Numbered from the stretch's first letter, positions 861-30,588 are shown. The stretch: DNA of 37,660 bases from an uncultured Methanosarcinales archaeon (GCA_964502785.1 CAZCXW010000006.1:1-37660), one strand, 5' to 3'. The notes: generated by a model not told the origin, from the letters alone. Made by a program: numbers and translations.

Positions 861-1000
861 TAAGTTAAGTAGTATCTGAGTCAAGAACTATTTCATTTTT
901 TCTATTCGAAAGAAGCACTTTCCGTGACTTCTCGCTTTTAATCTCATCCATGAAACACAAAGCCTTTTAAAACCATAGATATTCCGTTGATGTAATGCCC

Positions 1001-1043
1001 ATGAAATCACTGTTTCACTGTGTGTGATGGGTGTTTTTGACAC
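1001..1043 (+). repeat. intergenic repeat family, 3' half copy (TTTCACTGTGTGTGATGGGTGTTTTTGACAC)
   Basis: Aligns with 5351..5388 and with the reverse complement of 2427..2464. A weaker match extends upstream to about 905. It ends about 20 nt before the site-2 protease ATG. Confidence 0.6.
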
Positions 1044-1064
1044 GAAAGAACTTTACTAAAACAT

Positions 1065-2168
1065 ATGAATGGAAACGCAACGTTATTCCGCATTTTTGGG
1101 ATTGAGATACGAATCCATTACAGCTGGTGGCTTATTTTCATTCTCCTGACATGGAGCTTGGCAACAGCCTTCTTCCCAGTGAATTTTCCAGTATCCAAAA
1201 TGCAGGCATGGATTTTAGGTCTCGTATCGGCTTTGCTTCTATTTCTTTCCGTACTTCTCCACGAATTAAGCCATTCGCTTGTTGCGAAAGCAAAAAAAAT
1301 TCGCGTGGAAAATATTACCTTATTTTTCTTTGGCGGCGTGGCTGGCATCACGGAAGAAGACATGCCTCCAGCATCAGAATTTGTCATGGCCGTGGCCGGA
1401 CCCTTATTCTCGCTCTTCCTCTCGGGCTTATTTTACATCCTTTTTAGGGCAAACATCCATTTATTCGTCACTGCCGCAGCTTTGTATTTATACCAAATAA
1501 ACTTCATGTTGGCAGTATTTAACCTTCTTCCGGGCTTTCCGCTCGATGGTGGAAGAGCCTTCCGCGCTCTTCTCTTTTCGTATTACCATGATCTAGAGAA
1601 AGCGACACGGATTGCCGCAAATGTAGGGCGGGCACTGGCAGGCGCACTTTTCGTTATTGGGATGATCAACCTTTTTCGGGGTTCAGGCAATAGTTTATGG
1701 CTCATTCTCATCGGTGGTTTTTTGTACTTCATCGCTGGAGTAAGTTATGAGCAAGTGTTGATTAAGAAAATGTTAGCGCCAATTTCTCTTCGTGAATTAC
1801 TGATAAAGATACCCGTTCTCAACCCGGAACTAAGACTTCAAGAATTTGCTGTAAAATGGAGGAAAAGCGAGAATTCTCTTTTTCTCGTCAAAAATAAAAC
1901 ATTTGCCGGAATTCTCGAAATCAACCAATTGCAGAGTTTTTCTCCAAAATTGCAAGAGGCAATAAAAGTAAAAAACATTTCCAAGCCTCTCGAGACATTT
2001 CCTCGTTTGCAAAAAAATGAAACAGCCTATAAAGCATTCCAGATTTTATCCAAACAAAGCGGCGATGCCTTGCCTCTCTTTGAGAAAAATCATTTTATTG
2101 GAATGGTAACCCGACAGCAATTGCAGAGACGATTGCAATGGGAATTGAAGTTCAGAGGGAAAAGTTAA
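1065..2168 (+). CDS. M50 site-2 protease with C-terminal CBS pair
   Basis: HELSH (HExxH) in a TM helix, the NLLPGFPLDGG motif, several TM segments, and C-terminal CBS-like repeats (FAGILEINQL, FIGMVTRQQL). Confidence 0.9.
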   Translation: MNGNATLFRIFGIEIRIHYSWWLIFILLTWSLATAFFPVNFPVSKMQAWILGLVSALLLFLSVLLHELSHSLVAKAKKIRVENITLFFFGGVAGITEEDMPPASEFVMAVAGPLFSLFLSGLFYILFRANIHLFVTAAALYLYQINFMLAVFNLLPGFPLDGGRAFRALLFSYYHDLEKATRIAANVGRALAGALFVIGMINLFRGSGNSLWLILIGGFLYFIAGVSYEQVLIKKMLAPISLRELLIKIPVLNPELRLQEFAVKWRKSENSLFLVKNKTFAGILEINQLQSFSPKLQEAIKVKNISKPLETFPRLQKNETAYKAFQILSKQSGDALPLFEKNHFIGMVTRQQLQRRLQWELKFRGKS

Positions 2169-2426
2169 TGGATTAAATCAAAAAAGCTACTCTAATCCTA
2201 CCAGATGAGGGCTATTTTCTTGTTTATCTTTTGCTCTTTCATATTTTGCTTTAATTGTTGTACAAACATCCGTATACAAAGTATCGAAGGTAATCGATTT
2301 TGTTATATCCTAAAAATCATTTGAAATCGAACATATTAATGATTTTTATATATATATAAAATGCGCTAAATAATGTTCGAATTCTAGCGTATTTTAGTAT
2401 ACTTTCTTTTGTGATTCTCGCCTTAT

Positions 2427-2514
2427 CTGTCAAAAACCACCCGTCAGACGCACAGTGAAACATAGATTTCACTGGCGCACAAGAAGCAGCGGCTTCTTTG
2501 TGGACAGGTGGCAT
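2427..2514 (-). repeat. intergenic structured repeat, best-folded 88-nt copy
   Basis: The reverse complement matches 5301..5388 at 73 of 88 positions without gaps (hand alignment). It folds as a closing stem CCACCUGUC/GACGGGUGG around two hairpins, followed by T5-GACA. Confidence 0.75.
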
Positions 2515-2546
2515 GACGTTCATAACGTCATGCAGAGTTTTTGAGC

Positions 2547-2746
2547 ACCCCAGAATTCCACTGGTGGAACACAAAGAAAAGGAAAAAAATCATGTCTTCA
2601 GAGAGGATATAACTGAAAGTTAATGCTTTTCTTGTGTCACAGAAATTCGCCTATCGATAAGAGCGTCTCTTTTCAAGTCATGCCTTTAGGGCATGGTAAA
2701 ATACTTTCGGCGAATTTCTCATGACACCAGTGGAATATCTGTGGTT
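2547..2746. repeat. nested inverted repeats (about 200-nt composite hairpin)
   Basis: ATTCCACTGGTG (2555-2566) and CACCAGTGGAAT (2725-2736) are perfect 12-bp arms. The inner arms are GTGTCACAGAAATTCGCC (2634-2651) and GGCGAATTTCTCATGACAC (2709-2727). The apex hairpin is CATGCCtttagGGCATG (2679-2695). Confidence 0.7.
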
Positions 2747-2820
2747 TTAAACCTTCAACCAATTTAAAAACAGGAAAACTTAAGTAGAAAATATAAAGTA
2801 ACGCTTTTTTTAGAACACTC

Positions 2821-3633
2821 ATGTACCTTGAGATAATAAAAATACTGAAAAAAAAGATCAATCATCATTATATTCATCTAACCTCCCGCGGCAATGCTGC
2901 CATAGAAACAGCCTTGTCTCTCCTGCCAAAAGGAAGCACAATCTTAGTTCCAGAAGAAGGCGGCTGGCTTACCTATAAAACTGCACCCCTGAAAATAGGA
3001 TTAAAAGTTGAAGAAGTAAAGTGCACTGATGCAAAACTCGAAATTGAAGATCTCCAAAAAAAATTACAATCAAAACAATATGCTGCTCTTCTCTATCAAA
3101 ATCCTGGCGGGTATCATGCTGAGCAGTCCTTTGAAGAAATCTATGAATTATGTCAAAGATATGGATGTTTAGTTATTCTTGATGTCTCAGGAAGCATTGG
3201 CACATCATTATGCGATGGAAGATTTGCAAATATCCTGGTGGGAAGTTTTGGCCGTTGGAAACCCGTAGATGCAGGAAAAGGGGGCTTTATTTCATGTAAA
3301 GAGAAAAGTATTTTCGAGAATATCCATACTCCAGAATTCAAAGACGAAATCATCTTAAAGAAAATCTATGAACAGTTACAACATCTTCCAGCTCGCTTAA
3401 AAATCCTAGAAGAAAAAAGAAAGAAAGTTCTAACAGACTTACGTGAATTTAAAATAATTAACACCGATAATTGGGGATTAGTTGTCATCATCGAATTTAA
3501 TTCCGAAGAAGAGAAAAATAAAATTATTCAATATTGTAAAGAACAGACATTAGAATGGACGGAATGCCCGAGGTACATTCGATTGAATAGGAAAGGCATC
3601 AGCATTGAAGTAAAAAGGATTGAAAATAAATGA
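2821..3633 (+). CDS. PLP-dependent (fold-type I, DegT/class-V-like) enzyme, short form
   Basis: LTSRGNAAIETALSLL..GSTILVPE resembles the S.GT.AL..AL..GDEVI.P pattern. The segment ILDVSGSIG..VGSFGRWKPVDAGKGGFI resembles the D-x-A and SF..K..GG lysine region. Confidence 0.5.
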   Translation: MYLEIIKILKKKINHHYIHLTSRGNAAIETALSLLPKGSTILVPEEGGWLTYKTAPLKIGLKVEEVKCTDAKLEIEDLQKKLQSKQYAALLYQNPGGYHAEQSFEEIYELCQRYGCLVILDVSGSIGTSLCDGRFANILVGSFGRWKPVDAGKGGFISCKEKSIFENIHTPEFKDEIILKKIYEQLQHLPARLKILEEKRKKVLTDLREFKIINTDNWGLVVIIEFNSEEEKNKIIQYCKEQTLEWTECPRYIRLNRKGISIEVKRIENK

Positions 3634-5300: not shown

Positions 5301-5388
5301 TTGCCACCAGTTCACGAAGAAACTGCTGCTTCTTGTACGCTAGTGAAATTGCTGTTTCACTGTGTGTCTGACGGGTGATTTTTGATAT
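5301..5388 (+). repeat. intergenic structured repeat, second 88-nt copy
   Basis: See 2427..2514. It lies between convergent genes (GDT1 end at 5266, fur end at 5437). Confidence 0.75.
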
Positions 5389-12530: not shown

Positions 12531-12596
12531 TATACTAAAATGCGTTAGAATGTCAAAAATCACCCAGATATTTGATATCTAATGATTTTTAGTATA
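12531..12596 (-). repeat. mini-copy of the intergenic repeat with 10-bp terminal inverted repeats
   Basis: TATACTAAAA (12531-12540) and TTTTAGTATA (12587-12596) flank TGTCAAAAATCACCC. The reverse complement GGGTGATTTTTGACATTCTAACGCATTTTAGTATA matches 25846..25886. Confidence 0.6.
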
Positions 12597-25689: not shown

Positions 25690-25781
25690 CGAGCCTGCCC
25701 GGATTCGAACCGGGGTTTGCGGGTGTCTTTAAGCTTAGCTTTCCGAAGCCCGCCGTCCTATCCAGGCTAGACTACAGGCCC
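25690..25781 (-). tRNA. tRNA-Arg (anticodon UCG) with an 18-nt intron at position 37/38
   Basis: Hand-folded cloverleaf. Acceptor stem GGGCCUG/CAGGCUC, D stem GUCU/GGAC, anticodon stem GCGGG/CCCGC with loop CUUCGG^A, and T arm CCCGG-UUCGAAU-CCGGG. Discriminator G and no encoded CCA. The intron is at 25725-25742 (AAAGCUAAGCUUAAAGAC). 74 nt plus 18 nt gives 92 nt. Confidence 0.85.
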
Positions 25782-30343: not shown

Positions 30344-30399
30344 ATGCAAAAAATTTCGCAGGGTTTAAAACCCCGTCCTTTAGGGCGAAATTTTTGCAT
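30344..30399. other. 15-bp-stem hairpin
   Basis: ATGCAAAAAATTTCGC (30344-30359) pairs with GCGAAATTTTTGCAT (30385-30399) with a one-base bulge. The loop contains GGGTTTAAAACCC. Confidence 0.7.
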
Positions 30400-30402
30400 G
30401 CT

Positions 30403-30479
30403 AAAAATGCGTAGTTGAGAAACCGCCTCTTTTGAAACCTCGCCATTTATGGCGAGGTGAGGCGGTTTCACGCATTTTT
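30403..30479. other. 77-nt nested hairpin with 29 perfect base pairs
   Basis: The three paired segments are AAAAATGCGT/ACGCATTTTT, GAAACCGCCTC/GAGGCGGTTTC and ACCTCGCC/GGCGAGGT. It lies between the convergent cdc48 and aminopeptidase genes. It could be a terminator, an sRNA or a MITE. Confidence 0.7.
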
Positions 30480-30588
30480 ATCATTTCTGGATATTGTAAC
30501 ATTTTGATAATAATCATATAATTAAAACCACGTGTGTTTCTGTTTAGGTTCTAAAAAAACACATGGCTTTCTGGTTTCTTTGTGTAAT

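Follow-up and report, generated by a model that had tools for sequence, protein, structure and literature searches.

A 652-nt spacer in a DPANN archaeon best explained as a pile of nested short mobile elements

Overall organization of the locus

The stretch of DNA analysed here (37,660 nt, hereafter the window) belongs to a genome whose nearest named records are Candidatus Nanoarchaeia MAGs, and its host is a small DPANN archaeon. That the genome is archaeal is indicated by an intron-bearing tRNA gene on the minus strand at window 25690-25781 (21-nt intron, Rfam 50.4 bits), which was missed by ARAGORN in bacterial mode. A site-2 protease (S2P) gene is followed in the window by a gene for a PLP-dependent enzyme, with a spacer of 652 nt (2169-2820) between them (Table 1). 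The two proteins share 57% (S2P) and 64% (PLP enzyme) identity with those of the syntenic genes in G001, a genome of the same genus. No credible ORF was found in the spacer; the ORFs at 2317-2574 and 2673-2861 on the minus strand have no Pfam match and span repeat copies.

A BLAST search against the genome's own 1.32-Mb assembly revealed that blocks 2306-2401, 2425-2566, 2624-2725 and 2725-2757 each recur at many loci, and that the remainder of the spacer (2169-2305, 2402-2427 and 2752-2820) is single-copy even under relaxed settings. The repeated part consists of three elements, termed E1, E2 and E3, of which E3 is nested in E2. The initial annotation had described a gene-free region with four repeat structures, and had read it either as a structured minus-strand transcript of about 340 nt or as a pile-up of nested MITE insertions. 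The region is real and all four structures are present where it placed them, with some changes in detail. The inverted pair of modules exists, although the pairing of TATATAAAATGCGCTA (2353-2368) with TAGCGTATTTTAGTATA (2385-2401) is the stem of one module of about 49 nt. The perfect hairpin at 2511-2533 extends over 10 bp instead of 8 bp (GCATGACGTT/AACGTCATGC, 2511-2520 and 2524-2533). In the composite hairpin at 2547-2746, the perfect 12-bp outer arms (2555-2566 and 2725-2736) and the apex hairpin were confirmed, whereas the inner arms (2641-2651 and 2709-2719) pair perfectly over 11 bp and can be extended to about 16 bp, short of the 18 bp proposed.

Self-comparison of the 1.3-Mb genome yielded 176 short repeat islands, each with at least three other copies, amounting to 19.5 kb. 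Only 29% of the island bases fall inside ORFs of at least 120 aa, compared with 85% genome-wide. No repeat nest in the assembly is larger than the one at 2298-2725. Copies of the elements adjoin the starts of genes as well as their stops, with no constant spacing, and no multi-copy full-length insertion sequence was found in the genome.

Table 1. Features of the spacer and its flanking genes (window coordinates).
Feature	Position	Strand	Evidence
Site-2 protease gene (S2P; Peptidase_M50 with CBS tail), upstream flank	1065-2168	+	Pfam PF02163, E 2.8e-21
Unique, non-repeated spacer piece 3' of the S2P stop codon	2169-2305		Relaxed BLAST against the genome: no further copies
E1, 96-nt doublet of two inverted foldback modules	2306-2401		Genome copies; ends TAT(c)CTAAAA and TTTTAGTATA
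E1 module a	2306-2352	+	
E1 module b	2353-2401	-	
E2, 5' part	2428-2570	+	Copies on contigs C1, C11, C9 and C69
E3, 155-nt non-autonomous IS200/IS605-type element (PATE-like; putative), nested in E2	2571-2725	+	E2 empty sites, family alignment
E3 left end	2571-2635		
E3 right-end long hairpin	2636-2725		
E3 guide CAAG (predicted)	2674-2677		
E3 apical hairpin	2679-2695		
E3 terminal TGAC	2722-2725		
E2, 3' part: right arm of the 12-bp hairpin and terminus ...ATATCTGTGGTTTTAAA	2726-2751	+	Directly follows the left part in C9, C11 and C69
Unique spacer piece before the PLP gene; likely promoter of the PLP gene	2752-2820	+	Single-copy
PLP-dependent aminotransferase-fold enzyme gene, downstream flank	2821-3633	+	Pfam PF01041, PF00155; syntenic homologues in relatives

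The syntenic spacer in related genomes

The S2P-then-PLP gene order is conserved in five relatives, namely G001, G010, G002 and two named MAGs. The spacers in these genomes measure 89 nt (G001), 234 nt (G010), 67 nt (G002), and 44 and 50-74 nt (the two MAGs), and none contains the repeat structure of the window. No copy of E1, E2 or E3 is present in G001. Ordinary syntenic spacers of 44-234 nt without the structure are what the initial annotation had named as a refuting result, and they speak against the single-RNA reading. In a further relative, G004, the homologue of the PLP-enzyme gene (G004:C20:10812-11591, locus L033) contains one in-frame TAA.

A TATA-like box, AAAATATAAAG, occurs at 2788-2798. 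The initial annotation had proposed this box, near 2796, as the start of a minus-strand transcript. It is located about 25 nt upstream of the ATG of the PLP-enzyme gene (2821), where a promoter of that gene would be expected, and because of this position it more probably serves the PLP gene than a minus-strand transcript.

Structure of E1

E1 is built from foldback modules of about 47 nt, each consisting of TATACTAAAA, a stem, a loop (TAGAAWTCGAACAT...), the complementary stem and TTTTATATA; the ends of the family are TATACTAAAA/TTTTAGTATA. At least 12 full doublets occur in the genome with 87-93% identity, and an nhmmer search revealed about 55 modules genome-wide. These fall into five stem types (ATCATT, TGCGC, GCACT, GGCAATT and one longer), among which the termini and the loop are conserved and the stems vary in compensating fashion. 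The end sites are strongly enriched, with 32 for TATACTAAAA and 35 for TTTTAGTATA against 5.9 expected. The modules are found singly or in arrays of two (94 nt, the commonest), three, four, and five to six. Adjacent modules always overlap by exactly TA, and all copies are flanked by TA.

E1 has terminal inverted repeats and many short copies, as MITEs do. We infer that E1 is a TA-targeting MITE, for which the TA shared at the junctions suggests a target duplication, and no empty E1 site was found. Stacking of the modules occurs at TATATA junctions.

The search for a source of E1 yielded no parent. The IS630-type transposase domain PF13358 is absent from the genome of the window (G000) and from G007 and G022; the IS630 locus of the relative G021 stops at a contig edge, where its ends are unreadable. 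The genes between the only two E1 ends that lie far apart (C1:29365-31994) are ordinary ones, no long element with E1 termini was found, and an autonomous E1 was rejected.

One full E1 doublet (C8:29790-29883) lies about 68 nt downstream of the RNase P RNA gene (C8:29392-29722). The E1 and E2 families evidently exchange parts, because a 66-nt chimera at window 12531-12596 carries the E1 ends (TATACTAAAA...TTTTAGTATA) around the 5' terminus of E2 (TGTCAAAAATCACCC).

E2 and the insertion of E3

E2 is a composite element with a full length of 169 nt, formed by 2428-2570 together with 2726-2751. Its 5' part holds an 88-nt sub-module (2427-2514) that folds as a three-way junction, the 10-bp hairpin and the left arm of the terminal hairpin. 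Four other copies of E2 were found, at C1:36339-36490 (99% identity), C11:19279-19420 (98%), C9:18109-18250 (97%) and C69:3008-3145 (93%). The 88-nt element of the initial annotation is real. Solo copies stand at window 5302-5385 (86%) and, on other contigs, at C12:12161-12233 and C47:9548-9608, and near window 995-1060 there is a short element with the same ends. The ends of E2 are short imperfect inverted repeats, AAAACCAC/GTGGTTTT, with no conserved flank and no visible duplication; as neither flank is conserved, an IS200/IS605-type reading of E2 was rejected. Stop codons directly adjoin three of the five E2 copies, and two of these copies lie between convergent genes. The copies at C1:36310-36484 and C11:19243-19417 occupy the gaps between convergent ORFs almost exactly, reaching to within about 5 nt of both stops. 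E2 was detected solely in the genome of the window, with the genomes of relatives also searched, and is amplified only there.

Comparison of the E2 copies revealed the nesting. Just 3 nt separate the left arm ATTCCACTGGTG from the right arm CACCAGTGGAAT in the copies on C9, C11 and C69, and the 99% identical copy on C1 reads GGTGGAACACCA where the window has 155 nt more. The window reads GGTGGAAC, the 155 nt and ACCAGTGG, and the empty site given by the uninterrupted copies is GGTGGAAC|ACCA. Because ACAC is repeated, the boundary could be placed up to 4 nt away; it was fixed by homology to other E3 copies. E3 therefore sits in the terminal 12-bp hairpin of E2, where the loop meets the 3' arm. 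The composite hairpin of about 200 nt arises from this nesting, as its outer arms are those of E2, and its inner arms and apex those of E3.

The 3' 100 nt of E3 match about ten other loci at 80-84% identity, and full-length matches were found at two loci (about 70%). The copy in the window is atypical, with GAAC instead of TTAC as target, only 6 of 8 pairs in the left hairpin and a broken middle stem in the right end. It is 80-84% like other E3 copies, whereas the E2 around it shares 97-99% identity with its sister copies. This disagreement may mean that an already divergent E3 copy inserted recently, or that precise excision and copy correction have blurred the history.

Relatives of E1 and E3 are patchily distributed in other genera of the family, with 23 matches in G007, 34 in G022 and 3 in G020. 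Five E3 copies of these genomes (L067, L068 and L069 in G007, L073 and L074 in G022) carry an insert of about 53 nt with two hairpins in the apical loop of the right end, with the junctions CATT|CCCTGAAAAATACC...CTGCGGA|TATGG, a second case of a small element in a hairpin loop. Further E3-type left ends, both preceded by TTAC, occur in the window from 4423 onward (GGTTAC|ACTAAGAAACCAGAAAG) and near 30583 on the minus strand (AATTAC|ACAAAGAAACCAGAAAG). In addition, a sister family of E3 (window 30392-30486, C13:1349-1441 and C2:4397-4492) shows the same nested-hairpin layout with every stem changed compensatingly (AAACCGCCTC/GAGGCGGTTT). From the guide-like GAAA of this family a TCNT end is predicted, and TCAT is the end of two of the three copies.

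The ends of E3

The ends of E3, ACAAAG... and ...CATGAC, form no terminal inverted repeats; the flanks vary between copies and a target duplication is absent. However variable the flanks, 16-18 of about 20 copies with a long left end (G000, G007 and G020) directly follow TTAC, as do three variants with a short left end. Among metagenome copies whose left end was recognized by pattern, TTAC precedes 9 of 10; to these is added L081, identified by eye. The flanks other than TTAC are TGAC, TTGC, GTAC and the GAAC of the window. At the other end, 22 copies finish in TGAC.

Both ends contain hairpins. AAAG is located directly 5' of the left hairpin and AT follows it, and the stems of this hairpin covary among copies (CCCTGTGC, CCTCGATC, TCCTAATC and AACCAAAC). 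The right end is a long nested hairpin of 33 pairs, with CAAG directly 5' of its apical hairpin. In an alignment of 15 right ends, 90.2% of the cells are paired, compared with 82.5% after shuffling and 38-48% when the partners are slid, and 13 pairs are changed on both sides; none of 500 shuffles was as good. This 90-nt hairpin stops exactly at the transposon boundary, and its compensatory changes extend across genera.

In IS608, the left target and cleavage site TTAC is read by the guide AAAG, and the right cleavage site TCAA by the guide GAAT (PMC3201880, PMC5934647). A16:T-3 and A17:T-4 pairs are reported, as are base triplets formed by an AT located at the 3' foot of the left hairpin (PMC3201880, PMC5934647). 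From these published guide/cleavage pairs follows a rule in which guide positions 1, 2 and 4 pair with cleavage positions 2, 1 and 4, respectively. Both ends of E3 obey this rule, as AAAG fits TTAC and CAAG fits TGAC. Similar to IS608, E3 has a TTAC target, hairpins at both ends, 4-nt guides and AT after the left hairpin. It differs in the distance between TGAC and the hairpin foot, about 25 nt compared with 10 nt in IS608, and in that each end is buried in a far longer nested hairpin. Unlike the known IS200/IS605 systems compared, E3 resides in a DPANN archaeon, with no matching autonomous IS found.

E3 also shares features with PATEs (palindrome-associated transposable elements), with a conserved 5' tetranucleotide outside the element and subterminal imperfect palindromes at both ends, and like PATEs it is short, gene-less and multi-copy (PMC3119063, PMC10055086). 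From the sequence features of its ends we conclude that E3 is most probably a protein-less IS200/IS605-type element of the PATE kind, for which a transposase and present activity are presumed. E3 would move as single-stranded DNA ('peel and paste') through a Y1 HUH transposase supplied in trans, and would normally insert 3' of TTAC. Its ends would be recognized through the subterminal hairpins and the 4-nt guides, AAAG on the left and CAAG on the right.

Y1 transposases and the search for parental elements

The genome contains two Y1 transposase genes. The one at C2:2473-2835 on the minus strand (locus L016, 1462-1890) is an intact IS200-type ORF of 142 aa with the HUH motif DHLHMVV. A glycine is found where the catalytic tyrosine of the ISDra2 transposase aligns (WSDGGHI versus WNPSYCI), and this transposase may be inactive or domesticated. 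The second gene, at C21:20759-21070, is cut by the contig end; it encodes the HUH motif and, as expected, a tyrosine within an RGYY context. Repeated IS copies left unresolved by the assembler are typically truncated in this way. The C21 protein is the best candidate for the enzyme that would move E3.

Neither Y1 gene of the genome has E3-like ends, and no copy of E1 or E3 was found in the flanks of both genes or of the Y1 loci of relatives. Y1 genes are present in 13 of 41 related genomes, and G022 and G020, which carry relatives of E1 or E3, have no Y1 match; no clean co-occurrence of Y1 genes with the repeats was found across the 41 genomes. An autonomous parent of any of the families was found neither in the genome nor beside the Y1 genes of the genome and its relatives. 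None of 14 metagenome loci carrying the E3 right end contains an E3 parent with an ORF, and viral contigs contain no E1, E2 or E3 and no autonomous parent.

Alternative explanations

Based on these comparisons, we propose that the spacer is an accumulation of three short mobile elements without coding capacity, of which one is nested in another, and not a structured RNA gene, with a probability of about 0.88. The spacer would have grown from a normal length, about 45-90 nt in most relatives, to 652 nt by the piling up of elements, each of which would have brought its own hairpins.

The stability of the fold is what could suggest a single RNA. Region 2400-2780 folds with -128 kcal/mol on the plus strand and -131 kcal/mol on the minus strand, compared with means of about -88 and -91 kcal/mol for shuffled sequences (z of -7.8 and -7.3, or about -7.5 on both strands), and none of 100 shuffles folds as stably. 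The G+C content of the region (0.41-0.45) is above that of the spacer on either side (0.27-0.35), and a credible ORF is lacking. A structured minus-strand non-coding RNA of about 340 nt, running from the TATA box near 2796 to a T5 tract near 2431-2435, would account for these features. However, every structured block of the region is a multi-copy repeat, and the proposed transcript breaks up into three independently repeated elements, with copies elsewhere in unrelated contexts. The structure is missing from the syntenic spacers of all five relatives. The T5 tract, taken as the transcript end, is part of the conserved 5' terminus of E2, TGTCAAAAACC, and the TATA box occupies the promoter position of the PLP gene.

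Known RNA families do not explain the region either, as the initial annotation had expected. A scan of the full window with Rfam 15, which includes models for SRP RNA, RNase P RNA and snoRNA-like sRNAs, gave no match in the region at the gathering threshold, and a scan of 2150-2850 at E<=10 gave nothing beyond chance level, the top score there being 18.6 bits (E 1.2); ARAGORN detected no tRNA-like sequence or tmRNA in the region. The RNase P RNA (C8:29392-29722, 122 bits) and the SRP RNA (C47:9194-9463, 111 bits) of the genome are encoded on other contigs, so the region is neither of these, which also argues against its being one RNA gene. An omega-RNA of TnpB or IscB was likewise rejected, with the TnpB gene absent from G000, G007 and G022; the domain PF07282 gave no match in G007 and G022 and just one weak 17-bit match in G000. 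Taken on the sequence comparisons, the reading as a single RNA is close to refuted and very improbable.

The hairpin modules might instead be REP/BIME-like or act at the RNA level, as terminators, mRNA stabilisers, sRNAs or an omega-RNA-like scaffold, and be kept by the host for their structure. The stems are indeed kept by compensatory changes across genera, E2 copies abut stop codons in three of five cases (two between convergent genes), and the E1 modules resemble REP doublets in a genome that has Y1 genes. Compensatory stems are, however, equally expected if a Y1 transposase reads the hairpins as single-stranded DNA. The copies adjoin starts as well as stops without a fixed position, the repeats flank neither Y1 gene, TnpB is missing from the genome of the window, G007 and G022, and the same-genus relative lives without any of these elements. 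Host-kept function is thus unlikely, though less so than a single RNA. There is a slimmer chance that the modules are more than junk in that the right-end hairpin of E3 is transcribed as an omega-RNA-like or other trans-acting RNA and that, separately, small elements target extruded single-stranded loops. A misjoining of repeats in the metagenome-assembled genome is another way to obtain such a nest, and the assembly does comprise 95 contigs with many repeats and a Y1 gene cut by a contig end. Against it, both flanking genes are the syntenic neighbours of relatives, the halves of E2 are complete and in register around E3, and each unique piece of spacer between the repeats occurs just once in the genome. 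Nesting is also found elsewhere, in the E3 loops of G007 and G022 with their insert of about 53 nt. We regard such an artefact as highly improbable. The pile of mobile elements, which the initial annotation had offered as its alternative, is supported by the copy structure, the nesting and the syntenic spacers.

Comparison with known repeat families

TA-targeting MITEs of the IS630/Tc1-mariner type include Stowaway-like elements and the SM-type MITEs of Sulfolobus. E1 resembles them in its perfect 10-bp terminal inverted repeats, its TA flanks, its length of 47 nt, its high numbers and its stacking at TA. The terminal inverted repeats together with the stacking through a shared TA make E1 similar to the IS630/Tc1 type of targeting. 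It differs from these MITEs in being a single-hairpin unit, in which the inner stem varies by type and the loop is conserved.

REP/BIME elements and REPIN doublets are mobilized by RAYT (Y1) transposases in bacteria. Similar to these, E1-type modules are short extragenic palindromes that occur singly, as inverted doublets and in clusters, in a genome that encodes Y1 proteins; the ends of E1, by contrast, look like classical terminal inverted repeats. A REP/BIME system with RAYT was rejected, since the repeats do not border the Y1 genes and the repeat-rich G022 has no Y1 gene.

A survey of MITEs in DPANN archaea reported about 105 conserved MITEs per Mb in one Woesearchaeal genome (PMC11602168). 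The genome of the window is similar to such MITE-dense genomes, with its 176 islands in 1.3 Mb, mostly intergenic; the E1, E2 and E3 families and their nesting are not described in that survey (PMC11602168). PATEs are known from haloarchaea and bacteria (PMC3119063, PMC10055086). Because MITE-rich DPANN genomes and PATEs are already on record, E1-E3 are a set of new members of recorded kinds.

Implications

The main value of the analysis is a correction, in that an apparent large new structured RNA is most probably a set of nested mobile repeats. For this reason we advise against following up the region, or its many sister loci in the genome, as RNA genes. As a protein-less IS200/IS605 derivative that follows the guide/cleavage code of IS608 at its ends, E3 would add a clean case from the archaea (DPANN), and this code makes the predicted TTAC target and changes of the guides directly testable. 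Hairpin-bearing elements nested in each other can mimic complex RNA folds. A normal spacer, which measures 44-89 nt in four of the five relatives with this synteny, may be extended to 652 nt by such elements, with the promoter region downstream left intact.
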